This document shows positions 29,665-47,963 of a DNA stretch of 64,000 nucleotides, one piece after another. The position numbers and the translations under genes were made by a program. How positions within the stretch are numbered: the first letter of the stretch is position 1; each line of letters opens with the position of its first letter. Source of the DNA: Candidatus Poribacteria bacterium (lineage in GTDB: Bacteria > Poribacteria > WGA-4E > WGA-3G); contig CBDANF010000003.1 in NCBI GenBank assembly GCA_965197475.1, forward strand, positions 1,472,001 through 1,536,000. The letters run 5' to 3'. Under the pieces are notes generated by a model that did not search any database, was not told the DNA's origin, and worked only from the letters and a program-made list of their open reading frames with translations.

Positions 29665-29830
29665 TTACTTGCGTATCAACATTTTTCGCGTTGCAGTAAA
29701 GTCGCCTGCGGTAAGGGTATAGAAATAGACACCACTTGCAACAGATTCACCAAACTCATTTTTACCATCCCAATACGCCGCACGGCTGCGGCTATGGTAG
29801 ATTCCTGCCGATTGATGTCCAAGTGCCACT
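29665..29830 (-). pseudogene. Orphan 3' fragment of a FlgD/T9SS-like C-terminal domain
   Basis: Manual translation: VALGHQSAGIYHSRSRAAYWDGKNEFGESVASGVYFYTLTAGDFTATRKMLIRK*; no start codon; matches the tails of the 34104 and 44642 genes. Confidence 0.85.
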
Positions 29831-29840
29831 TTAATGCAAT

Positions 29841-31958
29841 TTAGTCCTGCAATTTAAAATCGCCCCACCTTGTAATGAGTTTACCACTTGCGGACACAAG
29901 CCCTCTCAACCGCACCGTGGCCAACTGCTCGCGAACCCCCGCATGCGACACATCCTCTATCCGATAATAGTAGACCGTATTCAATTTCGCTGTGGTATCA
30001 GTCCAGGTATATTCGTTGCGTTCACCTATGGTGCCAGCACCTTGAATGAGTTCGGCGTTGACAACTTTGAATTCACCATCCTTTGTTTCACTACGGTAGA
30101 TGTAAAAACCCGCGTTGTCCACCTCCGACTCCGTTGTCCATTTGAGGATAACACCAGTCGCTGAGTGTTCTGCTCGGAAATGGGATAGGGTGACGGGCAA
30201 CGCACCACCGCTTCCAACACCTGGTGCCCCGATGTCGTTAGGATGACCATAATAGGAGGTAGTCCTAGTAAGAAGTTTCGTATTTTTTGCGGAAATCCAT
30301 TCAGCTGCATCGGTTCCAAGGCGTGACACATCATCGTTATACCGACGAATCATTGAGGTGCGTATTCCATCTTTAGTCACACTTTTTGGAAGGACCCAGA
30401 CAAGTTTATCCTCAGCGTTTGCACTACTATTGATGTTTCCTACCTCATCAATTAGTTTATCTGATTGTGTCAGTTTGAGATGAAATCCTTTTTCACTTAG
30501 TATTTTACCCTTCAAACCGTGCAGTACATTTATGTCATAAACTTGTTCCTTTGAAATAGTGTTGGAGAATCGTCCTCGTTTCGAGATGATCAAGAGTGTA
30601 TCTTTAGGTTCAATTATTCTCTTTTTAAAGTTGATCGTTACATTCAACTTTCCATTAAAGTCTGCTGATTGCTGGTTTTGTATATCAAGTTTCCAACCTT
30701 CCAGATTTATCTCGTCTGTATTTGACAGATTGCAAAGTTCTATCCACTGTGGTAAACGACCGTCATTTGAAGCAACCATAATTTCACTGATGATGATTTC
30801 AGGTATTTGTGCTGCGGTGATAATCGACTTTAAATGTTTTGGATGGGGCATCAGTATTCCATTACGAGGTTCATCCCATTGAAAGAAATCCGGGTTGTCA
30901 GCCTTGTGGACAATTACATCATTAAACTGTTCAATGAGAGCTTGTGGTGCCCTGTTGTCAATCATATATTGGTACAAATCGGCACCGACAGGATAATCAA
31001 CACCGACTCTGTCATAGAACGCGATAAAGTTTGGGCTGAACCTACGAAAAGCCTCACACGAATAAAGATAATTGGCTTGAGCGACTTGGTTGCTTATCAT
31101 ATTGTTTCGTGAATATTCATACGCTTTTCGTATTAGGTCAATACGGCCTATGAGTACGTCCTCAAGATTTGGATTGGCCGCAAACAGGTTGTGATACTGA
31201 TGGTCAGGATTGATTTCATGAATTTTCTCAATAGTCCAATCATCCAACGTATACCCGCCGTTGGGCAAGTCTGAAGCGACATAATATCTTGCATACTTAG
31301 AAAAAATATGCAAGTCTTCAAAGCCTGCTTTGTTACAGGGTCCACCCATATCAATGACACCTAACAGTTTGCCCAACGACTCACTCCAGAAACTCAAAAA
31401 CGCATCTGCGTGATCCGGATTCAATTGTCCCGCAAATAACCTGCCACCAGGTCCTCCATGCCCACTATACGCTAAATGATGTTCAGAACTTGGGTGCTGA
31501 TTCACTAAATATAACACAATATCCATGAACGTTGATTTTAGGAAGAGACTTCTCTCAACGGTCCAAGCGTCCGGCATGTCTGTATATTTTCGTATCAGGA
31601 ATTGCTCTCGATAAGCACTCATTTGCTCACCAGTCTTCTTTTCGTCTGGGATTAATCCATAAGAACCGTCATAATCATTGGGGAGCTCATAAAGATGTAC
31701 AGAAGAAGTTTCCTCCCATATAGCGACTTCATAATATTTGAGAACTTCGCTTTCCTTTAGCAGAACAGCTTGGGTCCAGCCACCTGCAGACGCAAAGGGC
31801 ATCCAATCTGGGGTGACACGCACAACCCTTAGCATTACATTGGGAACAGATACCGGCGGCGGTGGCGAGGTGCCGCCCGGTGCTGATTCAGATTTAGTTG
31901 TCATTGCGCACAAAAAACTCAAAAGAATGAAATAAAATATACATCTTCGCAATTTCAT
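29841..31958 (-). CDS. Secreted clostripain/caspase-fold peptidase-like protein with a lamin-tail domain and GKLITRWG tail
   Basis: AYSGHGG (His-Gly) and DMGGPC (Cys) dyad pattern; IIISEIM...QWIEL.N lamin-tail motif; LPVTLSHF...WTTESEVDNAGF. Confidence 0.7.
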   Translation of the reverse strand: MKLRRCIFYFILLSFLCAMTTKSESAPGGTSPPPPVSVPNVMLRVVRVTPDWMPFASAGGWTQAVLLKESEVLKYYEVAIWEETSSVHLYELPNDYDGSYGLIPDEKKTGEQMSAYREQFLIRKYTDMPDAWTVERSLFLKSTFMDIVLYLVNQHPSSEHHLAYSGHGGPGGRLFAGQLNPDHADAFLSFWSESLGKLLGVIDMGGPCNKAGFEDLHIFSKYARYYVASDLPNGGYTLDDWTIEKIHEINPDHQYHNLFAANPNLEDVLIGRIDLIRKAYEYSRNNMISNQVAQANYLYSCEAFRRFSPNFIAFYDRVGVDYPVGADLYQYMIDNRAPQALIEQFNDVIVHKADNPDFFQWDEPRNGILMPHPKHLKSIITAAQIPEIIISEIMVASNDGRLPQWIELCNLSNTDEINLEGWKLDIQNQQSADFNGKLNVTINFKKRIIEPKDTLLIISKRGRFSNTISKEQVYDINVLHGLKGKILSEKGFHLKLTQSDKLIDEVGNINSSANAEDKLVWVLPKSVTKDGIRTSMIRRYNDDVSRLGTDAAEWISAKNTKLLTRTTSYYGHPNDIGAPGVGSGGALPVTLSHFRAEHSATGVILKWTTESEVDNAGFYIYRSETKDGEFKVVNAELIQGAGTIGERNEYTWTDTTAKLNTVYYYRIEDVSHAGVREQLATVRLRGLVSASGKLITRWGDFKLQD

Positions 31959-32070: not shown

Positions 32071-32194
32071 GGTTGTATAGATACAATTTACTTATAGTTT
32101 GTATCAAATGACCCCATGAGTTATACTATTAGTATTCGTTAAACTAACGAGTAGATGTCCTCGGATCCCCGATAATCTATTCATGGAGGTCAAT

Positions 32195-32995
32195 ATGAAC
32201 CGCAAGAAGGATACCGCTTACGGTATCACTCGGCTCGAATCCAAGAATGCCAGAGCCGCGATTATTCAGAAGATTTCAGCAGACTTTAATCTAATGCCTC
32301 TCGTTGCTGAAGCCTACTATAAACAGATTTCCACCTACTTTGAACAACACGCCGATGTGCACCTGACATCAGGGCAAATCTGCTACGAGGCAGTCGCCGC
32401 AGAGGAACCCGCAGGTAAACATATCGCTTTAGCGAAAAAAGTTTCCTGTCGGCTAACTCTCAATGACACAAACGCCGATCTTGAAGTCTTAGCGAATTAT
32501 GGTCTCGCAGGACTCAGACGGCATCGGATCCTCCGATTGACCCAAGAAGCTTATGACCAAGATGCCTTACTGAGCTACGAGGATTTAGCTGTATTATTAA
32601 CCACCAGTCCTGCTACAGTCAAACGCGACATTCGACACTTGAAGCAGGATGGGTATTTCGTTATGACGCGCGGGACGAAACACGACATGGGCCCCGGCAC
32701 TTCTCATAAAACCCAGGTCCTGGAGTTATATTTCAAAGCCTATACCTTCACCGAAATCGAGAAAAAGACGAACCACAGCGAACGAGCTGTCTACCGCTAC
32801 TTGAAAGACTTTACACAAGTCGCTACGCTCCATCATCAAGGCTTTCCTAACGCACAGATACGCCTGATCACCCATCTATCTGACCGGTTGATCCGCGAGT
32901 ATCTCTCACTCTATGAGGAATACCAACACACAGATCGCATAACCCAACTCCTTCACCCAGAACCTGAGGACACAAAAAAGGGGGACCTCTCATGA
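32195..32995 (+). CDS. DUF1670-like protein A (multiple HTH-like segments)
   Basis: GGAGG RBS; EAYDQDALLSYEDLAVLL, TRGTKHDMGPGTSHK, HSERAVYRY; family recognised from memory. Confidence 0.75.
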   Translation: MNRKKDTAYGITRLESKNARAAIIQKISADFNLMPLVAEAYYKQISTYFEQHADVHLTSGQICYEAVAAEEPAGKHIALAKKVSCRLTLNDTNADLEVLANYGLAGLRRHRILRLTQEAYDQDALLSYEDLAVLLTTSPATVKRDIRHLKQDGYFVMTRGTKHDMGPGTSHKTQVLELYFKAYTFTEIEKKTNHSERAVYRYLKDFTQVATLHHQGFPNAQIRLITHLSDRLIREYLSLYEEYQHTDRITQLLHPEPEDTKKGDLS

Positions 32996-33876
32996 GCAAA
33001 CCTCTAACCCGCACGCAAATCAACGAGAAGAAATTCAGACGCATCAACGATAAGTCCCTACGACAGTTGCTCATTCACCGCTTTCTCAATGACTATGGTT
33101 ATGACAAAGGCGAAGTCACTGCCACCGCCATTGTTGATGATATTCTTAAGACCGTTGAAGACTATTTCGTGATTACCCTTCCTTTGGAGAAACTCGCCAC
33201 CGGCGATCAACTCCCGGATGAGCGTTTCTTGAGTTATGGACAACTCGTTTGGATGGCCGTCCCTATTGAAGAGCATCCAGAAAGAGGAAAGTCCATCGTC
33301 AAAACCCGCATGAAACCCGTCATCCTGACTTACCTCGCCGCAGAGGATATTGAATCCTTTCGCAACGGTTTCACCTCCCGGCAATTGCGGATCAATCGCT
33401 TGGTCCGCTGGTGTCATCAAGCTTATGACCAAGGGGCATTATTGACACAACTCGACTTGGCAGTTTTGCTCAATGTCTGCGATGCCGTTGTCTGTGATTA
33501 TGTTAATGAATGGCAAAAAACCACTGGAGAACTCTTGCCCACCCGTGGCAATATCCATGACTTATCGGGGGCTATTACCCATAAGAAAGAGATCATAACC
33601 CTCTATCTTCAAGGACATCTCACCCCCAGGATTGCCGCAAAGACCAAACACTCTAAGGAGGCAGTTGACCGATACATTCGCGATTATGAGAGCGTCAAAG
33701 TCGTTCGGAAAGCAACCGCAGATATTGATAAAATCTCACAGATTACACGACTTTCTAAACGCGTCATCTCTCAATATCTCGACCTCATACCGCAGCACCA
33801 ACTCCAAGCCATAGATGCAGACCTTGCCAATTCAGACTCAAACGATGAAGCCACTCACCAAGGAGAAGCCCAATGA
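32992..33876 (+). CDS. DUF1670-like protein B, paralog of A, translationally coupled
   Basis: ATGA overlap; QAYDQGALLTQLDLAVLL, PTRGNIHDLSGAITHK, HSKEAVDRY. Confidence 0.75.
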   Translation: MSKPLTRTQINEKKFRRINDKSLRQLLIHRFLNDYGYDKGEVTATAIVDDILKTVEDYFVITLPLEKLATGDQLPDERFLSYGQLVWMAVPIEEHPERGKSIVKTRMKPVILTYLAAEDIESFRNGFTSRQLRINRLVRWCHQAYDQGALLTQLDLAVLLNVCDAVVCDYVNEWQKTTGELLPTRGNIHDLSGAITHKKEIITLYLQGHLTPRIAAKTKHSKEAVDRYIRDYESVKVVRKATADIDKISQITRLSKRVISQYLDLIPQHQLQAIDADLANSDSNDEATHQGEAQ

Positions 33877-33943
33877 GACCCTAATCCTATGTTCCCGACG
33901 AACTTTACTTCGCAAAACCGGGGCAGGTGCCTTGAAAATATGG

Positions 33944-33972
33944 TTGACAACCGCTACTGGTTTTGCTATACT
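33944..33972 (+). promoter_or_regulatory. Consensus sigma70 promoter inside the element's right end
   Basis: TTGACA-17 bp-TATACT with extended -10 TG. Confidence 0.75.
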
Positions 33973-33978
33973 TTAGAC

Positions 33979-34104
33979 ACGTTTATCGCTAAACGCATCA
34001 TTTCTCAAAGAGGATGCTCGCGATCCCAACGCAACCCACTCATCAACGATCGCTGGGAAGCCAATAAACATCAGCCTTCCAGCTATCCTATGGTCATTTG
34101 ATAC
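33979..34104 (+). ncRNA. Candidate structured non-coding RNA
   Basis: Downstream of the promoter with no credible ORF; successive stems CGTTTA/TAAACG, GCATC/GATGC, GCGATC/GATCGC (22-nt loop), GCTGGGAAGC/GCCTTCCAGC. Confidence 0.4.
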
Positions 34105-37100
34105 TATTTTCGTATTAACATTTTGCGTGTAGCAGTGAAATCGCCAGCAGTGAACATATAGAAGTAGACACCACTTGCCACCTTTTCACCGATGTTGTTT
34201 CTGCCATCCCAATGCGCAGCACGGCTGCGAGCCTGATACAGGCCTGCACGCTGATGTCCTAAGTCTAATGTACGCACTACATGTCCCTTGATGTCGTATA
34301 TTGTCAACGTGACATCGGCAGGTTTTGACAACTGATACGGTATCCACGTCTCTGGGTTAAACGGGTTGGGGTAGTTTGCTGCAAGCGCGTTCTCTCGACT
34401 CGCAGTAACCGTTACTTGCGCGGTAAGTGCTGGTCCGTTGTATTCTGCGATAGCGTCTGCGCCAACGGTTATGGTCAACGTGCCATCTGTAGTGAGATTT
34501 CCGTCAAAGGTCAATTCAATGGTGATCTCCGTGTCGCTTTGTCGGTCTATGTCAAAGGTGCCTACGGTAACACCCGATATACCGGTAACAGATACGGCAT
34601 CACTAATGACAAAGATAGACCTTTCAAATTTCCTGCCGCTGAGTGTGAGTGTAATGACGCTCCCATCCAGTGCAGCCTCAGTCAAAGGTGCAGCAGTTGA
34701 GGCAGACACTGATTCTGAAACAGCAGCGACAGATATTTGTGTCGTGAGTGCTGGTCCGTTGTATCCTGCGATAGCGTCTGCGCCAACGGTTATGGTCAAC
34801 GTGCCATCTGTAGTGAGATTTCCGTCAAAGGTCAATTCAATGGTGATCTCCGTGTCGCTTTGTCGGTCTATGTCAAAGGTGCCTACGGTAACACCCGATA
34901 TACCGGTAACAGATACGGCATCACTAATGACAAAGATAGACCTTTCAAATTTCCTGCCGCTGAGCGTGAGTGTAATGACGCTCCCATCCAGTGCAGCCTC
35001 AGTCAAAGGTGCAGCAGTTGAGGCTGCCACCGATTCTGAAACGGCAGCGACAGATATTTGTGTCGTGAGTGCTGGTCCGTTGTATCCCGCGATAGCTTCC
35101 GCTTCAACGGTGATAGTAAGCGTTGCATTGGTATCAAAGTTAGTGCCGTCAAATTCAAGTTTTATAGTAGCTTCCGTATCGCTTTCTTTGTCAGGGTCGT
35201 GCCAAGGGATTGTTACGCCAGCAATACCAGAAACAGATACCGCATTTCTAATGTCAATAGAACTTGCGTATTTCCTACCACTCAGTGTGAGTGTGACGAC
35301 ACTTCCGTGTAGGGTCGCCTCTGTCAAAGGTTCAGTAGTTGAGGCAGACACAGACTCCGTGTTAGCAGTGACCGGTATTTGTGCTATGAGATTGTCTCCA
35401 TCATAATCTTTAATTGCCGCTGCTCCTACAGATACCGTGAGTGTGTCATCAACAGTTAGATTGCCTTCATATTCAAGTTCAATCGTAACTTGTGTATCAC
35501 CGACACGAGTCACACCAAAGGTGTCAACGGTTACCCCTGTTATTCCGGATAGTGTGATTGCATTTCTGATTGTAACACTGGAACGATCAAAAACACCATT
35601 AACAAGTTTTAGAGTAATGACACTTCCATGCAATGTTGCTTCTGTAAGTGAAGCACCTTTGGATACGGTTAAGGTAGGGGTTGCGCCAACAGATTGTGGT
35701 TCGCTTTCGTCCTCATCATCTTCAACCACTTCAACTTCTTCAAGCTCCTCACTCTCTTTGATCTCTTCTTTTGGCGTTACTTCTTTTATCTGCCACGTAT
35801 TACCATCTATTCGCTCAGCAACAAAATTATGCTTCACGCCATTGATCGTACCCTTACTTTGAATGATCGTATTCTTACCTTGAGCGATTTGAAATAAACC
35901 ACCACCTACATGTGATGCAGAACCGTTTTCACGAACTGTAAATGTGCTATTTGTGCCGGGGTCAATACAACTGTCGCCTGGTTCCAACAGGTCTCCCACC
36001 GCACAGTAGTTTTGATCAGAAACATCCGTTTCTGAAACATCTGTTATGTTGATGGTGATATCAATACTATCAGTACCTCCGTTCCCATCCGAAACAGAGA
36101 CCGTAACAGAATAAGATGACTTCGTTTCATAATCCAATGCTGCGTTTGTCTGCAGTTGCCCAGTGGAAGTATCAATGCTAAACGCAGCCGCGTCCGTGCC
36201 AGTAAGGCTATATGTAAGTGTATCCTCACTATCCGCATCGGTTGCAGCGACAGCAGTCCCTATATTTTCACCCGCAGCAGTGTTCTCGGCAATGGAGCGT
36301 GTGGTGCTGTCGCCATCACTAAATACAGGGGCATTGTTTAAGGTTGCATCATCAGGTTGTGTATTACTCCTGTTATCTGCAATCTCCTTGATTTCCCAAG
36401 AATTTCCATCAACCTTTGTAGCGACGAAGCGGTATTCCTTATTATCTACCGTTGCGGAGATACTCATTGAATCATCATTAGAAACTTGGTTTATCCAGCT
36501 GAGCAACCATGGTAAGTTCGGAATATTCCATTTCGACCTCCCATCTTCTGACACTGAGAAAACAGCCTCAGAATCGGGATAGGTGCAGCTTTGTCCTGGT
36601 GTAAGAATGTCTCCTACCTGACACACGTTAGTTGTTGTATCAGTTCCAACCGATTCTGTTTCCGCTACATCAGTGATATTGATGGTGATCTCTATCGTAT
36701 CAGTGCCGCCTCTGGCATCAGAGACAGTGATGATGACAGAAAAGGATGACTGAGTCTCATAATCCAAAGCAGCCATTGTTTGCAGTTGCCCCGTAGCAGT
36801 ATCAATACTAAACGCTGCAGCATCCGTGCCACTAAGGCTATATGTAAGTGTGTCTCCGCTATCGGCATCAGCTGCAGAAACTGGTGTGCCGATGTTTTGC
36901 CCCGATTCAGTGTTTTCGGCGACAGAACGTGTCGTGCTGCTACCATCCGTGAAAACTGGTGCTGTGTTTGTAACGACAGCATCGAATACTGCCAGAGGTA
37001 GTTCTGCAGATTTGACAAACGCATATCCACTGTGGTTATGAGGTAATTCCGGTAATGTGTCAATATCCACAAGCACAGCATCCGTTGTTCCAGTAGTTCG

Positions 37101-40100
37101 ACTTACTGTAAAGACTTCACTCTCTACACTACCTGCAGAAATCGTAATATTCGTTGTACCACCGCTGATGCTCCCATCGGTAACGCTGATCAGCAGCACA
37201 ATATCAAACGGCGCGCCCGTGGGTGCTACTGCCTTAAACTGTCCATCTGCTACCTTTTCCAGTGAAACGTTAATAGGAAATGGGTCAACTGTGTTACCAC
37301 CCAAGCTGACCAAACTCAGCCTATTTAAACCTTTAAAGATGCCATCCGGCAGCGCACTCAAATCGTTGTTAGCCAACGAGAGTTCACTTAGTGATGTAAG
37401 TCTGTCAAAGATGCCAGCAGGCAACGTGGTAAAAGCATTGTTACCCAAGTGGAGCGTCGTCAGTGCGGTGATATCATCAAAGATGCCAGCAGGCAACGTG
37501 GTCAACTCGTTGGCATACAAGTAGAGGCTGTCGAGTGCGGTGAGACCATCAAAGATGTCAGCCGGCAAAGTGGTAAAAGAGTTGGCATACAAGGCGAGGC
37601 TGTCGAGTGCGGTGAGACCATCAAAGATGTCAGCCGGCAAAGTGGTAAAAGAGTTGTTACTCAAGTAGAGCGTCGTCAGTGTGGTGAGACCATCAAAGAT
37701 GTCAGCCGGCAACGTCGTCAACTCGTTGTCCCTCAAGTAGAGGTTGTCAAGTGCGGTGAGACCATCAAAGATGTCAGCCGGCAAAGTGGTCAACTCGTTG
37801 TCCCATAATCTGATCGTTGTCAGCGCGGTGAGACCGTCAAAATCACCGGATTTTAGGGCTGTGATGCCTTTGTTACTTAAGTTGAGTACCGTAATAGCGG
37901 CGAGGTGTGCTTCAGTCACATCCGCTGCATTATTTACGCCCGGCACTGCCTCCACAATCGCATCGCGCACCTGCGGCGTGCGGTTCCCTAACAAAGAACG
38001 GATTTCTGGTAATGGGTAGCTTAATGGTAAATCCGCAGATTTAACGAGTGTATACCCAGCGTGGTTTGATGGGAGGTTCGGTAATGTCCCGATATTTACG
38101 GTGACAGCCCCGGTGGTGTCAGGGGTTCGCGTCACTGTAAGCACTTCACTTTCCACACTACCTACGGAGATTGTGATAGTGCTTGCACCGCCTACAATGC
38201 TACCATTCGTTACGCTAATCGGTAACACAATAGTGAACGTCGCACCAGCGGGTGCAACTGCTTTGAACTGCCCATCTGCAACTTTTTCCAAAGAGATATT
38301 TAACGGTAGCGGATCAACTCCGATTTCACTTAATTGGAGTCCATTTAGTGAGGTAAGTCCGTCAAAAATTCCTGCGGGTAACGCAGTTAAAGCATTTCCG
38401 GTAAGGCCAATCCCTTGCAGTGCGGTAAGTCCCTCAAATACACCCGCTGGCAGTGTTGTCAATTGGTTGTGAGATAGGTCAATCTCTTGCAGTATGGTAA
38501 GTCCCTCAAATACACCCGCTGGCAGTGTTGTCAATTGGTTGTGAGATAGGTTAATCCCTTGCAGTGCGGTAAGTCCCTCAAATACACCCACTGGTAACGA
38601 GGTTATATTGTTACCAGGCATGTGGATACTTATAAGTTCAATGAGTCTGTCAAATACACCCAGTGGTAATGTGTTCAATTGGTTGTTTTCTATTGCAAGT
38701 TTTGTCAGTGAAGTAAGTCCGTCAAATATTCCCGCTGGCAGTGTGGTCAATGGGTTGCCAGATAGCCCGAGTGTTTCAAGTGCGGTGAGTCCGTTAAAAA
38801 TATCCGCTGGTAAGGATATTAATTCGCAGTCGAATATAGTGAGAGTATTAAGCGAAGTGAGACCGTCGAAATCACCGTGCTTTAGTGTAGTGATGTTCTG
38901 ATCAGATATATCCAACTCTTCAATAACAGTAAGGTGTGACTTCGTCACTTCCGCAGCAGAATTTACGTCCGGTATTGCATCCACAATAGCATTGACTACC
39001 TGTGGGGTGCGATGGCTGATCGGTGTGAATACTTCACCACCAAACTCGTTGAACACTAGTGGCAGATCATCGGATTTGACAAGTGTATAGCCAGAATGTT
39101 TTTCTGCTAACTGCGGTAATGTCTCAATATCCGCAGTAACTGCAAACGTTGTGCCGGGAATGCGGCTGACAGAGAAGATTTCGCTTTCCACATCTCCTAC
39201 TGGAATTGTAATATTTTCAACACCGACATCAATAACTCCATAAGCGATCCTGAGTGTGAGTTCAAGATCAAAAGGTGCACCAGAAGGAACAACTGCTTTA
39301 AACTGACCGTCACCAGCATGTTCAAGGCCGACACTAAGCGGCAGCGGGTCAACAGGATTACCTTTCAGATTGATAGTGGTGTCTGGGATAACTAAGTCAT
39401 CTGGTATTATGGAATCCTGTGAAATCACCTCACCTGTGATCAAATAGATGTAAAATGCTTTTATGGTAAAGTCATCTCTGTCATCAAAAATTCCTTTGAA
39501 GATACCTGTTGTCAATGAACGGAACTGGTTGTTCGCCAAATTAACGGCATTCAATGATGGAAGATTCTCAAATAGTCCTGCTGGTAACATCCTCAACTGA
39601 TTGTTACTCATATCTAATATTACCAATTTCGTGAGATTGTCAAAAATACCATCCGGTATTGAATTTAATTCGTTAGAGGATAGATTGAGCACGTTCAGGT
39701 TGGTGAACGTGTCAAAAATAGTGATTGGTAACGAGTTCAAATTGGTATTGGATATAAACAGGGTTCTCAGATTCGTGAGATATTGGAAGATGTTATCTGG
39801 CAATGTTGTGAATTCGTTGTTGTCTAACCCGAGTGCATCAAGGTTGGGCATGCCATCAAAATCACCGGGTTTTAGTTCTGTAATGTTCTTATTGGTCAGA
39901 TCCAGCACGGTAATAGCTGCGAGATGTACCTCAGTTATATCTGTAGCAGTATTGACACCCGGTACTGCGGCTACGATCGCATCTTGCACCTGTTGCGTTC
40001 GGTCAGTTACAGGTGTGTCACCGCTAAAGTCTGGTACTTGTGTCCCAGATATATCGTCTGGTAGAGTCAATACGATTAGGTTCGTCAGGTGGTCAAAATC

Positions 40101-43100
40101 GCTCCTTTGCACAGATATCAACGGGTTATTCGACAGATACAGGTGTGTCAGGTTGGTAAGATTGTGAAAGGGTCTGTCTGGCAGTGAATTCAACTGATTG
40201 CTGCTTAGGTTCAGTGTTGTCAGATGAGTAAGATTGTCAAAGAGCCCCTCTGGTAATGAACTCAACTGGTTGTTGTTTATGTAAAGTTCTTGCAGGTTGG
40301 TGTTATTGTCAAAAATGCCGACTGGTAAAGTGCTGATAACGTTGCTGCTTAGGTTCAGTGTTGTCAGATGAGTAAGATTGTCAAAGATCCTATCGGGTAT
40401 TGAACTCAACTTATTCCCATCCAAACGGATTTCTATGAGGTTATCCAGTCCGTCAAAATCACCGTATTTCAGTTCTGTAAGAGCCTGTGAATCACTAAAC
40501 CAATTGCCTCCAAGGTCTAAGTTAGACCCGCCAGAAGACGCATTTAGGGTGGTAATAGCTGTTAGATGTGCTTCCGTAACAAAGTGCCCCATATTATAAT
40601 TTTTCTTAGAATAAACACCATCAATTATGTATTCCCTCTCTACATTATGTAAAGTAGGATCTATCTCAGGTACTGATCCGATGATAGCATCAAGTATCTT
40701 TGGCGAACGTTCTGATACGGGTGTGGGGGCTCCAGGTAAGGCACTTATTACTGTTAGCGGTAATGATGATCTTAAGAATTCATGTACTATTCGACCGTCA
40801 GAGTTTGATAGACTCGGCAATGATACAATGTCTACAATAACTGCAGCAGTTGTGTTAGGAGTACGAGTCATTGTGAGAAGTCCACTTTCTGAATTACCTT
40901 TGGGTATCGTGATGCTGGTTGCACCACCATTGATACTACCATTTGCAAAGATAAGAGGTAGTTCCAAGTCAATCGGTGCAGGGGTTGGTAAAACAGCCTT
41001 AAATTGACCTTCACCAATCTTTTCCAATCCTATGGATAGAGGATAAGGCTTATTTTTGTGATTGAGATATAAAAGCGAGGTAAGGTTATCAAATATACCC
41101 GGTGGTAAGCTCGTTAGATAGTTGTTAAACAGGTGGAGCCTTTCAAGTGCTGTGAGGTTATCAAATATGCCAGCTGGTAATGTCGTTAGAAGGTTGTTAT
41201 GCAGGTGGAGGATTTCAAGTGCTGTGAGGTTATCAAATATGCCAGCTGGTAATGTCGTTAGAAGGTTGTTATGCAGGTGGAGGATTTCAAGTGCTGTGAG
41301 GTTATCAAATAATCCCTGTGGCAACGATGATAACGGGGTGTTATGCAGGTAGAGCACTTCCAACTCACTGAGGTTATCAAATATGCCAGCTGGTAATGTC
41401 GTTAGAAGGTTGTTATGCAGGTAAAGACCTTTAAGCGATGTGAGGTTATCAAATAAACCCTGTGGCAACGATGATAACTGGTTGTAAGACAGGGAGAGAC
41501 TTTCAAGTGCTGTGAGGTTATCAAATATACTCGGTGGCAACGATGATAACTGGTTGCCAGAACTGTAGAGAGACAGGTAGAGCCCTTCCAATGCGGTGAG
41601 GTCATCAAACAAACCCTGTGGCAACGATGATAACTGGTTGCCAGACAGGTCGAGCCTTTGAAGTGCTGTCAAACCACTGAAATCGCCGTGTTTTAGAGAT
41701 GTAATGTTTTGACGACGCAGATATAAATACGTAATTCCAGCAAGATGACTGGCGGTGATATCCGCAATACTCGAAACATTAAGATCATTTGATTTGACCG
41801 CGTTGAGAATCGCTTCTGCTACCTGCGGTGTCCGAACACCGAAAATATACTGGGATGCCGCCGTTGCAGTGAATGTAATCGTCTGCGAAACGTCTTGCAC
41901 ACTGACATCCACGGTGCTTATGCCTACTATATTGCCAAGCGTCAGTGTGCTTTCTGCTATACCGTCTGCATTGGTCGTGACGTTTATTGTGCTGAGTGTA
42001 CCACCCCCTGCTGTGACAGAAAACGTTACAGGCACACCTTCAAATGCTACATCGCTTGCATCCCGCACTTCCACAACAAACGGCTGTGCAAGCGTTGTGC
42101 CGATGTCCGCCTGCTGTGTATCCCCTGATATTTTCTCAACTGCTGTTACCGTGCGATTGTCAAAGTCTACAATAACATTTCTCACCTGCAGTGTAGGTAT
42201 GTGCGTATAGATAGATGGATAACTCAACAGATTACCCCGCGCATCTATCTCGTCATCCATCCCCAATTCTGTGTTTGCCACTAACGGTGATAGATCGGAT
42301 ACAGCGTTATTCTGAAAATATAACTTTCCCAGACTGGTCAAGTTTTGGACAGCGGATATATCCGATATGCTGTTGTTCGGCATATCTAACCACTCAAGAT
42401 TGATTAGGTTCTGAATAGACGATATACCTGATATTGTGTTATTGCCGATGACGAGTTCTGTTAGGTTCGTTAAGCCTGCAACCGCAGAAATATCCGTAAT
42501 AGTGTTTTCATTCAGATATAACTGTGTCAAATTTATCAGATTTGATACCGTTGATATATCTGTAATACTATTTTCATTGAGTCGCAGCTGCGTGAGATTT
42601 ATCAAACCTGATAAATGAGATATATCTGAAATACTGTTCCCCCATAAATATAGCTTAGATAAATTCGTTAAGCCTGATAGAGAGGAAAAGTTCGTGATAT
42701 TGTTATCCCACAGCTGCAACTCTGCGAGGTTCGTCAGTCCCGCAAGTGCAGATATATCCGAAACCGAGTTGTCGCCAAGAATGAGCGTTGTCAGATTGGT
42801 GGCTGTCTCAAGTCCTGTTAAGTTGTTGATACTGGCAGCTTGGGCATTCAACGTCGTGAGTGTTTCCATCTCTGTTTCTGAAATAGTGGCACCAGATGTT
42901 TTACCGAGCGCGGATTCTATTTTTGCACGTAGATTCGCATCGGGAATGTCTACGATAACCTCTGCAGGTGCGGTTACGGTGACACTGACGGCAATGGAGC
43001 AATTGTTATCAGTATTACTCTCACCGGTGACACTATCCACGCAGGCACCGTAATAGTAAGTGCCAGGGGTTGTTGGTGCAGTAACTGTAATATAGCGACG

Positions 43101-44531
43101 GATGGTGTCATTTACACCCAGTGGGTTACTGGGGTATCCACGGATCTGCGTATCCTCTGTCGAGATGACTGCATCCGAGGAGCGATAATACGTTAGGGTT
43201 GTCGCACTCGATTCTGCTGTGCCAGCATTTCTGAGGGTTGCATAGAGTCTAAACTGCTCTCCAGGTTCAACGGTATCGGGAACTGCCTCCACCGCTTCAA
43301 CGACCAAGTCAGGTGTTGATGGGACAACTTCTGCGGGGATACCGAGGGCAATACCGTCTGGAACATTCAACCCAGTGATGACGTCCTCAACGTTTGAACC
43401 ATCCAAGTTCGCACGCTGGATTTTACCGTTAGTAAACCTTTCCGTAGCAGGATTCCAGTCCGTATGTGTCCAATACATCTTTCCACCCACAACATCTAAT
43501 GCTATACCCCATGGAGCCTCCAGTCCGCTTGTGATGAGGTCTTGCACATTAGAGCCATCAAGGTTGGCACGTTGGATTTTATCCGTGCCATGGTCTATCC
43601 AGTACATCTTACCACCCGATACATCTAACGCTATACCTCTTGGAATGCTCAATCCCTGTGTAACGAGGTCTTCGACGTTGGAACCATCCAAATTCGCACG
43701 TTGGATTTTACTAGGACGCAAATTTGTCCAGTACATCTTACCACCCGACACGTCTAACGTTAAACCTGTTGGAGCGTCCAATCCCTGTGTAACGAGGTCT
43801 TCGACGTTGGAACCATCCAAATTCGCACGTTGGATTTTATCTGTCTGATTATCTACCCAGTACATCTTACCACCCGCTATATCTAACGCTATACCAAATG
43901 GAGAAGTTAGTCCGCTTGTGACGAGGTCTTGAACATTAGAGCCGTCAAGGTTTACGCGCTGGATTTTATCCGTGCCAGCATCTGTCCAATATATCGGTGG
44001 GCTATCGGGGTCAACGACAAGGACTTTGGGTTTGGTGGTTGCTGTCGGGGGTGTTGACGGTAAGTCTCCTGTGACCCGAAGAAGAGTTGAACTGACGTAT
44101 TTTTCCCTGACACCATCAACGTTCATCTCGATAACCACCGTGTATTCACCTGCGCTTGTTGGCGAATAGCCGCACAACTCTTGATCGCGTGCTGTAGTCG
44201 GAACATCAACCCATGGACTTGTTGAATTGTCTCGCCTTATCCATTTTGAACTGTGCATTTGGTAGCTGACACCGTTAATCGAAATGGTACCCTCGCCCTG
44301 TATACAACCTCCGATCCCAACACTTTGAAATAGACCTCCAATTCTGAAGACAATGCGATCTTCTGATACAGTAAGTCCGTCTAACACAGTATATCCGGTA
44401 GGTGGCGAGACGTAATTTTCGACGACTTCTATGCTTAATGCGTAACCAACACAAGGCAGCCCACATATCAACAATACCACTATAAGAATTGACATGTTGA
44501 TTTTTCGATTCACAACTAACATTTTCATCAT
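34104..44531 (-). CDS. Giant secreted repeat protein (YWTD/LDL-receptor class B, CARDB, internalin-type and typical LRRs, Big_1, cadherin, tandem ~107-aa repeats, FlgD/T9SS-like C-terminus)
   Basis: 3475 aa; KMYWTD...KIQRANLDGS repeats, PDLVVE, LPAGIFDGLTAL LRRs, NTAPVF...AEN...LDYE cadherins, NYPNPFNPETWIPY...RKMLIRK. Confidence 0.92.
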   Translation of the reverse strand: MMKMLVVNRKINMSILIVVLLICGLPCVGYALSIEVVENYVSPPTGYTVLDGLTVSEDRIVFRIGGLFQSVGIGGCIQGEGTISINGVSYQMHSSKWIRRDNSTSPWVDVPTTARDQELCGYSPTSAGEYTVVIEMNVDGVREKYVSSTLLRVTGDLPSTPPTATTKPKVLVVDPDSPPIYWTDAGTDKIQRVNLDGSNVQDLVTSGLTSPFGIALDIAGGKMYWVDNQTDKIQRANLDGSNVEDLVTQGLDAPTGLTLDVSGGKMYWTNLRPSKIQRANLDGSNVEDLVTQGLSIPRGIALDVSGGKMYWIDHGTDKIQRANLDGSNVQDLITSGLEAPWGIALDVVGGKMYWTHTDWNPATERFTNGKIQRANLDGSNVEDVITGLNVPDGIALGIPAEVVPSTPDLVVEAVEAVPDTVEPGEQFRLYATLRNAGTAESSATTLTYYRSSDAVISTEDTQIRGYPSNPLGVNDTIRRYITVTAPTTPGTYYYGACVDSVTGESNTDNNCSIAVSVTVTAPAEVIVDIPDANLRAKIESALGKTSGATISETEMETLTTLNAQAASINNLTGLETATNLTTLILGDNSVSDISALAGLTNLAELQLWDNNITNFSSLSGLTNLSKLYLWGNSISDISHLSGLINLTQLRLNENSITDISTVSNLINLTQLYLNENTITDISAVAGLTNLTELVIGNNTISGISSIQNLINLEWLDMPNNSISDISAVQNLTSLGKLYFQNNAVSDLSPLVANTELGMDDEIDARGNLLSYPSIYTHIPTLQVRNVIVDFDNRTVTAVEKISGDTQQADIGTTLAQPFVVEVRDASDVAFEGVPVTFSVTAGGGTLSTINVTTNADGIAESTLTLGNIVGISTVDVSVQDVSQTITFTATAASQYIFGVRTPQVAEAILNAVKSNDLNVSSIADITASHLAGITYLYLRRQNITSLKHGDFSGLTALQRLDLSGNQLSSLPQGLFDDLTALEGLYLSLYSSGNQLSSLPPSIFDNLTALESLSLSYNQLSSLPQGLFDNLTSLKGLYLHNNLLTTLPAGIFDNLSELEVLYLHNTPLSSLPQGLFDNLTALEILHLHNNLLTTLPAGIFDNLTALEILHLHNNLLTTLPAGIFDNLTALERLHLFNNYLTSLPPGIFDNLTSLLYLNHKNKPYPLSIGLEKIGEGQFKAVLPTPAPIDLELPLIFANGSINGGATSITIPKGNSESGLLTMTRTPNTTAAVIVDIVSLPSLSNSDGRIVHEFLRSSLPLTVISALPGAPTPVSERSPKILDAIIGSVPEIDPTLHNVEREYIIDGVYSKKNYNMGHFVTEAHLTAITTLNASSGGSNLDLGGNWFSDSQALTELKYGDFDGLDNLIEIRLDGNKLSSIPDRIFDNLTHLTTLNLSSNVISTLPVGIFDNNTNLQELYINNNQLSSLPEGLFDNLTHLTTLNLSSNQLNSLPDRPFHNLTNLTHLYLSNNPLISVQRSDFDHLTNLIVLTLPDDISGTQVPDFSGDTPVTDRTQQVQDAIVAAVPGVNTATDITEVHLAAITVLDLTNKNITELKPGDFDGMPNLDALGLDNNEFTTLPDNIFQYLTNLRTLFISNTNLNSLPITIFDTFTNLNVLNLSSNELNSIPDGIFDNLTKLVILDMSNNQLRMLPAGLFENLPSLNAVNLANNQFRSLTTGIFKGIFDDRDDFTIKAFYIYLITGEVISQDSIIPDDLVIPDTTINLKGNPVDPLPLSVGLEHAGDGQFKAVVPSGAPFDLELTLRIAYGVIDVGVENITIPVGDVESEIFSVSRIPGTTFAVTADIETLPQLAEKHSGYTLVKSDDLPLVFNEFGGEVFTPISHRTPQVVNAIVDAIPDVNSAAEVTKSHLTVIEELDISDQNITTLKHGDFDGLTSLNTLTIFDCELISLPADIFNGLTALETLGLSGNPLTTLPAGIFDGLTSLTKLAIENNQLNTLPLGVFDRLIELISIHMPGNNITSLPVGVFEGLTALQGINLSHNQLTTLPAGVFEGLTILQEIDLSHNQLTTLPAGVFEGLTALQGIGLTGNALTALPAGIFDGLTSLNGLQLSEIGVDPLPLNISLEKVADGQFKAVAPAGATFTIVLPISVTNGSIVGGASTITISVGSVESEVLTVTRTPDTTGAVTVNIGTLPNLPSNHAGYTLVKSADLPLSYPLPEIRSLLGNRTPQVRDAIVEAVPGVNNAADVTEAHLAAITVLNLSNKGITALKSGDFDGLTALTTIRLWDNELTTLPADIFDGLTALDNLYLRDNELTTLPADIFDGLTTLTTLYLSNNSFTTLPADIFDGLTALDSLALYANSFTTLPADIFDGLTALDSLYLYANELTTLPAGIFDDITALTTLHLGNNAFTTLPAGIFDRLTSLSELSLANNDLSALPDGIFKGLNRLSLVSLGGNTVDPFPINVSLEKVADGQFKAVAPTGAPFDIVLLISVTDGSISGGTTNITISAGSVESEVFTVSRTTGTTDAVLVDIDTLPELPHNHSGYAFVKSAELPLAVFDAVVTNTAPVFTDGSSTTRSVAENTESGQNIGTPVSAADADSGDTLTYSLSGTDAAAFSIDTATGQLQTMAALDYETQSSFSVIITVSDARGGTDTIEITINITDVAETESVGTDTTTNVCQVGDILTPGQSCTYPDSEAVFSVSEDGRSKWNIPNLPWLLSWINQVSNDDSMSISATVDNKEYRFVATKVDGNSWEIKEIADNRSNTQPDDATLNNAPVFSDGDSTTRSIAENTAAGENIGTAVAATDADSEDTLTYSLTGTDAAAFSIDTSTGQLQTNAALDYETKSSYSVTVSVSDGNGGTDSIDITINITDVSETDVSDQNYCAVGDLLEPGDSCIDPGTNSTFTVRENGSASHVGGGLFQIAQGKNTIIQSKGTINGVKHNFVAERIDGNTWQIKEVTPKEEIKESEELEEVEVVEDDEDESEPQSVGATPTLTVSKGASLTEATLHGSVITLKLVNGVFDRSSVTIRNAITLSGITGVTVDTFGVTRVGDTQVTIELEYEGNLTVDDTLTVSVGAAAIKDYDGDNLIAQIPVTANTESVSASTTEPLTEATLHGSVVTLTLSGRKYASSIDIRNAVSVSGIAGVTIPWHDPDKESDTEATIKLEFDGTNFDTNATLTITVEAEAIAGYNGPALTTQISVAAVSESVAASTAAPLTEAALDGSVITLTLSGRKFERSIFVISDAVSVTGISGVTVGTFDIDRQSDTEITIELTFDGNLTTDGTLTITVGADAIAGYNGPALTTQISVAAVSESVSASTAAPLTEAALDGSVITLTLSGRKFERSIFVISDAVSVTGISGVTVGTFDIDRQSDTEITIELTFDGNLTTDGTLTITVGADAIAEYNGPALTAQVTVTASRENALAANYPNPFNPETWIPYQLSKPADVTLTIYDIKGHVVRTLDLGHQRAGLYQARSRAAHWDGRNNIGEKVASGVYFYMFTAGDFTATRKMLIRK
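34426..35096. repeat. Near-identical 321-bp tandem intragenic duplication
   Basis: AGTGCTGGTCCGTTGTAT recurs every 321 bp; two encoded 107-aa units are essentially identical. Confidence 0.9.
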
Positions 44532-44641: not shown

Positions 44642-47600
44642 TTACTTCCGTATCAACATCTTGCGGGTTGCGGTGAAATCGCCTGCGGTGAGGGTGTAAA
44701 AATAGACACCACTTGCAGCAGGTTCACCGACTGCGTTTCTGCCATCCCAATGCGCAGCACGGCTGCGAGCCTGATACAGGCCTGCACGCTGATGCCCCAA
44801 ATCTAAGACACGTATAACATGTCCCTTGATGTCATATATCGTCAGTGTGACATCGGCAGGTTTTGACAACTGATACGGTATCCACGTCTCTGGGTTGAAC
44901 GGGTTCGGATAATTCGCAAGCAGTGCGGTTTCTTCCGGTGTGAACAGTGCCAAGAGTCGCTCCAGAACAGCAATACCCCGTTGGTAGGTGCGAGAGGTGT
45001 TTCCTGATGCGCGTGCCTCAATGAGATATCCTTGGAGTTGTGCTTTCGTGAAATGTGATTGCACATGCGCGCGGGCAGCGGGTGCAGCTGCCGCACTGTC
45101 TACCGCGGCCGCAACCAAGATGAAATCGTCCACGTTGACAATTTCATCTCCGTTGACATCCGCAGCATTGCTCCCGGTACGTCCATACCGTTGTGCGACT
45201 ACAATCAGATCATTAACATCCACAATCCCATCACGGTTCACGTCCTCCTTTACGATTGCGGGATTAACTGGAGAAAAAATGCCAATGGCTATGCCGTCTG
45301 GCCTGTCTAATCCTTGTGTGACGAGGTCTTCGATGTTTGAGCCGTCCAAGTTCGCACGTTGGATTTTATCTGTGCCAAAATCTGTCCAATACATCTTGCC
45401 ACCCACAACATCTAACGCTATGCTCCTTGGATATCTCAATCCTTGTGTGACAAGGTCTTCAACATTGGATCCATCCAGGTTTGCCCGTTGGATTTTATCT
45501 GTGCCAAAATCTGTCCAATACATCTTGCCACCTACCTCGTCTAACGCTATGCCCCTTGGCAAGCTCAATCCTTGTGTGACAAGGTCTTGAACGTCTGATC
45601 CATCAAAGTTTGCCCGTTGGATTTTTGTTGTGCCAAAATCCGTCCAATACATCTTGCCATCCACAACATTTAACGCTATACCCCTTGGCTCCTCCAATCC
45701 TTGTGTGACAAGGTCTTCAACATTGGATCCATCCAGGTTGGCACGTTGGATTTTATCTGTGCCATTATCAGTCCAATACATCTTGCCACCCACAACATCT
45801 AACGCTATGCTCCCTGGATATCTCAATCCTTGTGTGACAAGGTCTTCAACATTGGATCCATCCAGGTTTGCCCGTTGGATTTTATCTGTGCCAAAATCTG
45901 TCCAATACATCTTGCCACCTGCCACGTCTAACGCTATGCCCCTTGGCAAGCTCAATCCTTGTGTGACAAGGTCTTGAACGTCTGATCCATCAAGGTTTGC
46001 CCGTTGGATTTTTGTTGTGCCAAAATCCGTCCAAAAAATGGTTAGCCGAGCTTCATCTCTATTTGCAGTGACAAGTATTTCTGTGGTTAGCGCGGTGCCT
46101 TTATGGTTAGTTATCGCACCATCGGCAACGTTGAAGGTTAGTGGGGTATCAGTGAATAAGTCAGTACCATCAAATTTTAGTTCAAACGTCACTTGTCTAT
46201 CACTGATACGTTGCACTGTATCGGTATCTAAGGTTACACCGTTGATACCAGAAACGTTCACCGCCTCTTTGATTGTGGCAATATCCTCCTCAAAAGCGGC
46301 CCCCGTAATTGCTAACTTGACAGTGCTCCCATTCAACGTTGCTTCTGTCAACGGAGACACGGCCGAAGCGGAAATAAATTCTTTCAAAGCAGTGACAGGT
46401 ATTTCTGTCGTAATATCTTCACCTATATTGTTGGCTATTGCTCCTGTTGCGATGCTAAAGGTGAGTGCGGAATTCGTATCAAAATCGGTGTCATCATAAT
46501 TCAGTTCAACTGTAATTTCTGTATCGCTAATACGTTGCGCAGTAGTGGTATCTAAGGTTACACCACTTATGCCAGAGACCTTCAACGCCTCTCTAATTGT
46601 GGAGATGTCTTGTTCATAAGCGGCACCAGTCAGTGTCAGGGTGACAGTGCTTCCATCCAGCGTCGTTTCTGTCAACGAAGACACAACCGAAGCAGAAACA
46701 CCTTCTTTGATAGTGGTTACAGATATTTCTGTCGTAATATCTTCACCTATATTGTTGGCTATTGCTCCTGTTGCGATGCTAAAGGTGAGTGTGGAATCCG
46801 TATCAAAATCGGTGTCATCATAATCCAGTTCAACTGTAATTTCTGTATCGCTAATACGTTGCGCAGTAATGGTATCTAAGGTTACACCGTTGATACCAGA
46901 GACGGTTACTGCCTCTTTGATTTTGGAGATGTCCTGCTCAAAAACAGCATCTGTAAGGATTAGCGTGACAGTGCTTCCATCCAGCGTCGTTTCTGTCAAT
47001 GGAGACACGACCGAAGCAGAAACAAACTCTTTCACAGCAGTGACAGGTATTTCTGAGGTAAGTGTTTCTCCTATGTCACCTACGATAGCTGATGCATCAA
47101 TACTAAAGGTAAGGACTGTATCCGTGTCAAAGTCAGTATCATCAAAATCCAGTCCAACCGTTATTTCTCTATCGCTGAGGCGTTGTGCTGTAGCAGTGTC
47201 TATCGTTACGCCATCGATACCTGTTACCGTCACGGCATTTATGATCGTGGCAACGTCCGCCTCGTAAGCACCAGTACCCCAACTTAATGTCAATGTGATC
47301 ATACTCTCATCCAAAGTTGTCTCTGTCAACGGAGGTGTAGCGGATGCAAATACGCCTTTATAAGGGGTGACTGGGACTTCTGCAGTGAGTGCGGGACCGT
47401 CGTAGTTATCGATTGCAGCTGCTTCAACGGTGAAGGTGAGCGTGGCATCGGTCTCAAAGTCACCGTCAAATTTAAGCTCAACCGTGACCGTTGTGTCATT
47501 TACTCTATTCACCCGTTCTACCTGCCTGTATCTGGTTTCATAGTATCCCGCACACCATCCGACACAGAACGGATTGAACGGGACGAATTGCCTGTAGCTC

Positions 47601-47869: not shown

Positions 47870-47963
47870 AAGAAACTCCTTTGTAAACATTCCTTGAAGA
47901 TCAGGTGGACAAAGCCACCCACCATTTTTGAAATAGGTTGTAGTTGAGTTGGTTAATGCATTC

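Follow-up and report, generated by a model that had tools for sequence, protein, structure and literature searches.

A two-gene DUF1670 insertion element at the stop codons of type IX secretion sorting tails in Candidatus Poribacteria

In a 64,000-nt stretch of the genome of a sponge-symbiont bacterium, a Candidatus Poribacteria (GCA_965197475.1, contig CBDANF010000003.1, positions 1,472,001-1,536,000 of the + strand; hereafter the window, with its genome called G000), we found a 2014-bp element that carries two genes, orfA and orfB, both of which encode proteins of the family DUF1670. We conclude that this element is a mobile, recently active and strongly site-specific insertion sequence present in many copies. 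It enters type IX secretion sorting tails in one orientation, at the boundary of the lysine codon and the stop codon, and is flanked by TT at either end. We judge the chances to be even that the DUF1670 proteins of this element, which would then be autonomous, are themselves a recombinase or transposase of an undescribed kind.

The extent of the element was read from alleles that lack it. A close relative (genome G003) is empty at the window locus, such that a left flank of 99% identity meets the right flank directly (...gatacaatt-TACTT-tcgtattaac...), and metagenome contigs from three DNA runs in three studies join 32091 to 34108, with exactly 2016 bases skipped and two ambiguous bases that could belong to either flank; the shorter side of these joins measures 242-251 bases. 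Because of the G003 allele and these contigs, we consider the window locus to be polymorphic for the insertion in natural populations. The inserted DNA of 2016 bp is made up of the element itself (32094-34107) plus one extra TT; the element has the termini ATAG...CTAT, flanked on each side by TT, and the empty alleles yielded the full layout of its ends given below. Within these ends, we found 13-bp inverted repeats as claimed by an initial annotation of the window, with GTATCAAATGACC at 32101-32113 and its reverse complement GGTCATTTGATAC at 34092-34104; the left copy of the repeat lies 4 bp deeper in the element than the right copy. All 20 copies of the element in G000 also have ATAGTTT just before 32101 and TAT just after 34104. 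The 2004-bp unit of the initial annotation is thus real, but it falls short of the element by 7 bp at its left boundary and by 3 bp at its right boundary. The features of the locus, in window coordinates, are as follows.

32089..32093, + strand: left junction, target-derived TACTT, from the G003 empty allele and the metagenome contigs that join 32091 to 34108
32094..34107, + strand: the element proper, ATAG...CTAT, 2014 bp, from comparison of copies and empty alleles
32094..32113, + strand: left end ATAG-TTTG-TATCAAATGACC, holding the inverted repeat at 32101-32113, from comparison of copies and relatives
32183..32995, + strand: orfA, 270 aa, A-type DUF1670 (PF07900, E 4e-62)
32992..33876, + strand: orfB, 294 aa, B-type DUF1670, with an ATGA overlap with orfA (PF07900, E 1.2e-61)
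33839..33938, + strand: the most conserved stretch among the 18 full-length copies, which runs across the stop of orfB into ~60 bases of the adjoining non-coding DNA
34092..34107, + strand: right end GGTCATTTGATA-CTAT, which on the - strand gives the host gene the last base of its Lys codon and a complete TAG stop
34108..34109, + strand: second copy of TT, which is a target duplication of 2 bp or the 2-bp core of a crossover, from the metagenome contigs and G003
34110..34135, - strand: coding tail of the target gene, ...ATRKMLIR, which includes TATTAAC, from conservation of the right flank in 20 copies
34104..44531, - strand: target gene, 3475 aa, reading frame intact, with a C-terminal type IX secretion type A sorting domain

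The two genes lie on the + strand between flanking genes that are both on the - strand (29841-31958 and 34104-44531), and they overlap by ATGA, in agreement with the initial description of translationally coupled paralogs on the strand opposite to that of their neighbours. The stretch at 33839..33938, in which variable columns number 0 of 50 and 1 of 50 in its two halves among the 18 full copies, is possibly a candidate cis site. TT was present at both junctions in 20 of 20 copies in G000, and among 29 loci in related genomes of the same order, 27 had ends like those of the element with TT/TT around them (TT on both sides in all 27 loci with both ends; in the remaining two, both ends were not found). 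This TT could stem from a 2-bp duplication after a staggered cut or from conservative exchange across a core of 2 bp, and the data do not separate the two.

Extra copies at different loci and an empty allele, which the initial annotation had named as signs of mobility, were both found, the former in G000 (20 copies) and the latter in G003 and three metagenome runs; the situation that would have spoken against mobility, in which relatives carry the genes at the same position with no empty site, is not that of G003. Specifically, G000 (5.70 Mb, three contigs) holds 18 full-length copies with 92.1-100% identity and two internally deleted copies, spread over two contigs, and nine copies are at least 99.5% identical to the copy in the window. 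The 12-mer core of the ends has 39 exact occurrences in the genome, many more than chance would give, and all of them within the 20 copies; since it is absent outside them, there is no master element with these ends. Both open reading frames (ORFs) are intact in 15 of the 18 full copies, orfA is broken in two, and A and B are fused in frame in one (L011, G000 C3:685919-687923), which is 1 bp longer and has a single 564-aa frame. A search for further empty sites with two other copies yielded only non-syntenic orthologous tails in genomes G020 and G050, which may not be true empty sites. DUF1670 was present in 11 of the 41 related genomes searched and in 35 of 151 genomes sampled across the phylum (G000 counted in both), all 35 in one order and with one to at least nine pairs each.

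One could suppose that the two genes are a resident pair of regulators that lies by chance between short inverted repeats, as would suit their Pfam matches to helix-turn-helix (HTH) families and database annotations such as 'biotin operon repressor'. We refuted this reading, to which we give practically no credence, on the basis of the copies at many unrelated loci with identical ends, the empty allele of G003, the metagenome contigs without the element, and the patchy occurrence among congeners noted above.

Several individual copies deserve mention. The fusion in L011 parallels natural two-unit DUF1670 fusions of other lineages. Three copies appear as mosaics (L011, L012 and L013, at G000 C3:685919, C2:1472043 and C2:37436), in that their synonymous divergence (dS) from the window copy is 0.36-0.44 in orfA and 0.015-0.057 in orfB, which suggests recombination between element lineages. 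A 432-bp derivative (L020, G000 C3:94120-94551), found at a sorting tail, consists of element bases 1-286 and 1854-2004 with both ends kept, and is either the result of an in-place deletion or a miniature element that was moved in trans. A circle junction (right end, TT, left end) had 0 matches in metagenome contigs, but only four of these contigs hold the left end, such that this result is uninformative. The same pattern had one exact match across the 151 phylum genomes, in G098, where a right-end-like stretch of 16-18 bp abuts the left end with one TT between them and unrelated DNA before (loci L082 and L167, G098:C1:247724-247751). It may be what is left of a tandem insertion or of a circle-junction-like arrangement, or the element may have inserted next to an older copy. 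The runs that carry the element include sponge metagenomes. In contigs of the metatranscriptome run X14, depth was 50-486 over the element and 0-21 over its flanks; carry-over of DNA is possible, and we did not use this difference as evidence.

We found that 18 of the 20 copies in G000 lie at the end of an open frame of the form ...(T)RKM(L/V)IxK*, and that the element is always convergent with its target gene. At the C-terminus of the 3475-aa gene in the window and of its neighbour at 44642, the sorting-domain model TIGR04183 scored 38.4 and 39.9 bits (cut-off 23), and PF18962 scored 28.8 and 27.0 bits (cut-off 27). Read on the strand of the target gene, the junction is ...CGA AAA TAG, in which the third base of the Lys codon and the entire stop codon come from the element, while the old AAG-TAA is stranded at the other end of the element. 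Thus, the Lys codon and the stop are rebuilt by the right end of the element, and the host protein is unchanged. The stranded end is the TACTT at 32089..32093, which on the - strand consists of the orphaned original Lys codon AAG and the TA of the original TAA stop; its last two bases (32092-32093) are the first copy of TT. As initially proposed, the right inverted repeat ends on the third base of a stop codon, since 34104 is the third base of the TAG of the 3475-aa gene. It had also been proposed that removal of the unit would restore the tail seen in sibling genes. Sibling tails ending in ...TRKMLIRK* do exist at 44642 and 29665, but the ancestral end of the gene, as given by the empty allele, is AAG-TAA, compared to the AAA-TAA that a bare deletion of 32101-34104 would leave.

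The two flanks behave differently among the copies. The left flank, TAY, which is the target's own, ends in C in 14 copies and in T in the other 6, while the right flank is TATTT in 20 of 20. In the unoccupied tails of G000, the last Lys codon is AAG in 14 and AAA in 7. Because the ratio of C to T on the left is close to the use of AAG and AAA in free tails, we take the left triplet to be derived from the target and the right triplet from the element. A model with duplication of TA, in which the element would start with CTTATAG, was rejected on the same ratio and on the empty allele, which reads TACTT.

Recognition must extend into the coding tail, since the genome contains 31,204 TAYTT sites and only 37 tails that fit the class pattern (16 of them occupied, according to our own pattern). 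On the far side of the insertion point, no sequence consensus was seen across the 20 copies. The coding strand of the tail (ATG TTG ATA C) mimics the end core CATTTGATAC, and the right junction is near-palindromic after insertion; likewise, TATTAAC in the tail resembles the end core TATCAAA. The tail at 34110..34135 is the probable recognition sequence, and it would be read by the proteins of the element. Conservation of this mimic is confounded with coding constraint, and two copies lie outside such tails and lack it. In other species of the genus, all six full elements were at the same type of tail. At least five loci from other families of the order (L054, L055, L060, L062 and L082) have different flanks. 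In two of these (L054 and L055, in genomes G035 and G126), elements of another lineage split a short, hairpin-like inverted repeat, with one arm on each side (aaaccgagtttt ... aaaactcggttt), and do not lie at a sorting tail; this is a different target preference within the family.

Near the element, we noted other tails, and elsewhere in the genome another repeat. The adjacent large genes at 34104-44531 (3475 aa) and 44642-47890 (1082 aa), both on the - strand, have near-identical tails, of which the first is occupied and the second free. An orphan fragment of a sorting tail lies at 29665-29730 on the - strand and ends in the last 19 codons, FYTLTAGDFTATRKMLIRK*, as in intact genes; the 140 codons upstream of it hold five stops, such that it is a free copy of the target without a gene. 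Finally, a repeat of ~137 bp with inverted ends, similar to a miniature transposable element, occupies bases ~1020-1170 of L001 (G000 C3 ~3316150-3316300), and has five matches in G000 and dozens at 86-99% identity in G003 and G020.

Both proteins match PF07900 far above its cut-off of 25 bits (209.9 bits for OrfA and 208.3 bits for OrfB), over nearly the full length of the Pfam model; the profile search recommended in the initial annotation thus bore out its assignment to DUF1670. OrfA and OrfB share 35% identity across 192 aa (E 1e-27). The ratio of nonsynonymous to synonymous substitution (dN/dS) was 0.03-0.19 across both ORFs in 37 comparisons between copies and species (0.06-0.17 for orfA and 0.03-0.19 for orfB), from which we conclude that both genes are under purifying selection. 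Residues that vary little or not at all in both paralogs are R118, A123, Q126, R163-G164, D168, H175-K176, H198, R205-Y206 and Y240 (OrfA numbering), a set that would be suitable for an active site. The AlphaFold (AF2) model of OrfA, from an alignment of 75 rows (predicted local distance difference test, pLDDT, 90.1), is helical with one beta-hairpin, and has a winged HTH and two further HTH-like units; the model of OrfB (46 rows, pLDDT 78.6) is similar. Neither model had a match at E<=0.001 in a Foldseek search of the PDB. In comparisons of sequence, the sole match of the family profile to PDB sequences was a 'CAP repeat' chain (E 4e-4), the other Pfam matches of OrfA and OrfB were to HTH families with weak scores, and NCBIfam gave nothing above its cut-offs (the sole transposase model listed, for the IS1 family, scored 13.4 bits with a cut-off of 100). 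PHROGs yielded only 'transcriptional regulator' (E 1.2e-5), PADLOC had no match, the ESM Atlas had no score of 0.9 or more, and a tblastn search of plasmids had no match. The natural fusions and the conserved order of A and B suggest that the two proteins may form a heteromer; a prediction of the OrfA+OrfB complex scored 0.19 relative to a mark of 0.32, and we did not use it either way.

Since the invariant residues include three Arg, a Lys, two His and two Tyr, a set like that of tyrosine recombinases, and since the fold is largely helical, as in those enzymes, we considered that DUF1670 might be a highly divergent member of a known catalytic class, with a helical site of the tyrosine recombinase or topoisomerase IB type, in which case the element would be a new family with a known mechanism. 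We regard this as improbable. Neither Pfam, NCBIfam nor the PDB profiles gave a match to any recombinase, no catalytic domain of a recombinase or transposase appears among the Foldseek matches listed (the sole recombinase entries there are gamma-delta resolvase, E 1.2, and the Tc3 DNA-binding domain, E 1.1), and the invariant residues do not follow one another in the RKHRHY order of those enzymes.

To see the element in the context of its family, we turn to the 1254 relatives found at E<=0.001 in a full scan of 1.84 billion cluster representatives. Among these are proteins that have two DUF1670 units (500-550 aa) or three (~940 aa); among the fused proteins, there was no other domain except HTH families and no other catalytic domain. 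The source names were 'DUF1670 domain-containing protein [Candidatus Poribacteria bacterium]', 'hypothetical protein' and 'biotin operon repressor', and the literature searched, exclusive of supplements, contained no mention of DUF1670 or PF07900. With one genome per species, 155 stretches encode relatives, and 80 of these were kept for analysis of the locus. Their hosts are both archaeal (Methanomicrobiales, Methanosarcinales, Methanotrichaceae, ANME archaea and Thermoplasmatota) and bacterial (Chloroflexota, Actinomycetota, Atribacteria, Kiritimatiellales, Halanaerobium, Calditrichota, KSB1, Armatimonadia, Bacteroidales and others). In 60 of the 80 loci, across many phyla, a B-type ORF comes immediately after an A-type ORF, with a 4-bp overlap in 46; most of the other 20 loci are cut by a contig end or broken.

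Where one genome or lineage gave several loci, we judged the limits of the repeat, at which similarity stops sharply. We found repeats of 1719-1730 bp at five loci of an Actinomycetota genome (99.7-99.8% identity), of 1703 bp in an ANME-3 archaeon (99.9%), of 1730 bp in a Methanosarcinales genome (99.0%), and of ~1865 bp in four Pontiellaceae/Kiritimatiellales genomes (83-84% between genomes). All four sets have inverted repeats of 17-49 bp at or near their ends, such that the check for terminal repeats around DUF1670 pairs of other taxa, suggested initially, came out in favour of a family of elements. Moreover, only ~60-75 bp of each distant element lie outside the A and B genes; because these are discrete repeats with so little to spare, we take the A/B pair to be the whole coding content of an old and widespread insertion-sequence-like family. 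We conclude that the element of the window is a member of this unclassified family, which is defined by the ordered A-then-B DUF1670 pair. In the five Actinomycetota copies (L102, L104, L105, L109 and L120), the right flank is semi-conserved, g(c/t)gcgcgttc..., and TC stands on both sides of ACTCTGGG...ACTAT; these flanks are hints that site-specific insertion and the 2-bp repeat may be family-wide.

Beyond orfA and orfB, we found no other gene or structured RNA in the element. The small ORF at 33889-34101 and three other internal ORFs had no match to a Pfam family, and there is no room for an ORF such as that at 33889-34101 in distant elements, given the 60-75 bp outside their two genes. We also considered an RNA component and rejected it: a scan of the element against Rfam had no match (the best was mir-4178, E 0.76), the fold of 33860-34109, which covers the right non-coding part of 230 bp, was not unusually stable (z-score -1.17), and the distant elements leave little room for a guide RNA.

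The lack of a catalytic domain within the element, together with the 432-bp internally deleted copy that retains both ends, could mean that the element is non-autonomous. In that case, a conventional transposase from another place in the genome would move it in trans, and A and B would be cargo or regulators. We think this very improbable, since the end sequence is confined to the 20 copies, purifying selection among these copies is strong on both genes, and the two-gene unit recurs as a whole element in distant phyla. The element holds only the two DUF1670 genes, both under purifying selection, and may encode its own transposase in them.

We propose the following scheme for movement by the DUF1670 proteins. 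The A and B proteins would act jointly as multi-HTH proteins, binding the offset inverted repeats at both ends of the element as well as the end-like sequence of the tail, whose coding strand carries TTGATA, complementary to the TATCAA of the end core. They would then themselves perform a 2-bp staggered breakage and joining at TT, with an active site that might be drawn from R118, R163, D168, H175, K176, H198, R205, Y206 and Y240. We consider recombinase function of the DUF1670 proteins, with cutting and joining of their own, to be the most economical reading, and put its probability at about one half. Somewhat more tentatively, and with a little less than even confidence, we suggest that the A/B pair may be a DNA transposase or site-specific recombinase of a mechanistic class that is new. 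It would be a heteromer, helical and multi-HTH, that lacks the DDE, HUH, DEDD, serine recombinase and tyrosine recombinase domains; by 2-bp staggered exchange it would drive elements of 1.7-2.0 kb in Bacteria and Archaea, and in Poribacteria it would have specialised on the type IX stop codon as a harmless landing site present in many copies.

A number of observations weigh against a catalytic role of the two proteins. Both models are arrays of helical HTH units with one beta-hairpin and without a recognisable catalytic domain, and the best Foldseek matches are DNA-binding proteins: the winged helices of SelB and MntR for OrfA (E>=0.06), and SdiA, Pax paired domains and the bipartite DNA-binding domain of Tc3 for OrfB (E>=0.1). 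Several of the invariant polar residues lie within predicted recognition helices, and thus may be mere contacts to DNA. There was no circle junction, excision product or covalent intermediate among our observations, and the transcription signal is contig coverage of a single RNA library that possibly contains DNA.

The main rival to recombination by A and B themselves is that the two proteins do no more than bind the ends, pair them and aim them, while a recruited, ubiquitous host enzyme, such as a Xer-type tyrosine recombinase or a topoisomerase, cuts and joins, as happens with XerCD-hijacking elements. Both proteins do resemble pure DNA-binding arrays, and the right junction has inverted arms around a 7-bp spacer (TTGATAC-TATTTnn-GTATCAA), like the core site of a recombinase; this arrangement was read from the flanks of the copies and is degenerate in the window copy (GTATTAA). 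On this account, however, the recruited enzyme must be common to all hosts of a family that is found in both Bacteria and Archaea. Moreover, the element uses many target sites in a genome, compared to the single dif site used by the known hijackers of XerCD, and no dif-like 11-6-11 site was seen when the sequence was inspected by eye against the consensus. We consider recruitment of a host enzyme unlikely, although it deserves clearly more weight than the other alternatives, and we retain recombination by the DUF1670 proteins as the reading to be preferred.

Either outcome, a recombinase formed by A and B or the recruitment of a host enzyme, would be new, and either assigns a function to DUF1670. 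The enzyme classes known to move DNA are few; should an abundant element lack all of them, there is either a new class or spread to many sites by host enzymes alone. The element also illustrates a strategy of harmlessness, in that it selects a conserved coding tail, inserts at its stop codon and brings a replacement stop. Proteins that aim insertion at a defined sequence of ~20-30 bp are of possible practical interest for targeted integration, and with respect to annotation, repeats of the element fragment metagenome assemblies into contigs of ~2 kb.

In comparison with known systems, the element has the generic properties of an insertion sequence: many copies with identical ends lie at unrelated loci, and the empty site differs from the occupied one by the element and a short duplication. 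The initial claim that no DDE, HUH, serine recombinase or IS110-type DEDD motif could be recognised held up in searches of Pfam, NCBIfam and Foldseek. For the DDE enzymes (IS630, IS3, IS1, IS5 and others), there was no RNase-H-like domain by Pfam, NCBIfam, the models or Foldseek at E<=0.001. The serine recombinase domain PF00239 was not among the Pfam matches at E<=1, and gamma-delta resolvase appeared only in Foldseek, at E 1.2. The tyrosine recombinase domain PF00589 had no match in Pfam or the PDB profiles and none among the Foldseek matches listed; a convergent Tyr-based active site is nevertheless possible for the DUF1670 proteins. Neither HUH enzymes (IS200/IS605 and IS91, Y1/Y2) nor DEDD enzymes (IS110, RuvC-like) had a Pfam or NCBIfam match. 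Thus, of the initial proposal of an autonomous element outside the standard families, mobility and the lack of a match to a classified transposase stand, and its placement beyond the classified families is borne out within the scope of the comparison with Pfam, NCBIfam, PDB and folds.

In outline, the element resembles IS630 and the Tc1-mariner elements, which likewise have short terminal inverted repeats, a 2-bp target duplication and binding of the ends by a bipartite paired-like HTH domain; the likeness of OrfB to the Tc3 DNA-binding domain and Pax paired domains in Foldseek is weak. Those elements duplicate TA and use one protein with a DDE/D RNase-H-like domain, whereas the element described here has TT, lacks that domain, and encodes two paralogs, with strict targeting of gene tails. 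In IS1 and IS3, the gene for an upstream HTH protein also overlaps a downstream gene, but there the second frame carries the DDE domain and is reached by frameshifting, while the genes of our element are paralogs with an ATGA overlap, neither of them DDE. The small serine recombinases of the IS607 type have an HTH joined to a small second domain, and their 2-bp core would fit the TT; the element differs from them in having no resolvase-type catalytic domain (by Pfam) and no alpha/beta catalytic fold (in the models). XerCD-hijacking elements (IMEX) are likewise mobile DNA without a recognisable recombinase gene, but they integrate at the single chromosomal dif site, compared to ~20 sites in one genome for the element, whose family occurs in Archaea as well as Bacteria. 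With respect to its target, the element is like Tn7, in which TnsD directs insertion at attTn7, downstream of glmS, using the TnsABC enzymes. In both cases, the target is chosen through the conserved 3' end of a coding sequence and the host protein is spared. In contrast to Tn7, the element, which has no TnsA/B-like enzyme, uses a multi-copy tail found across many genes, and it lands on the stop codon itself and rebuilds it.

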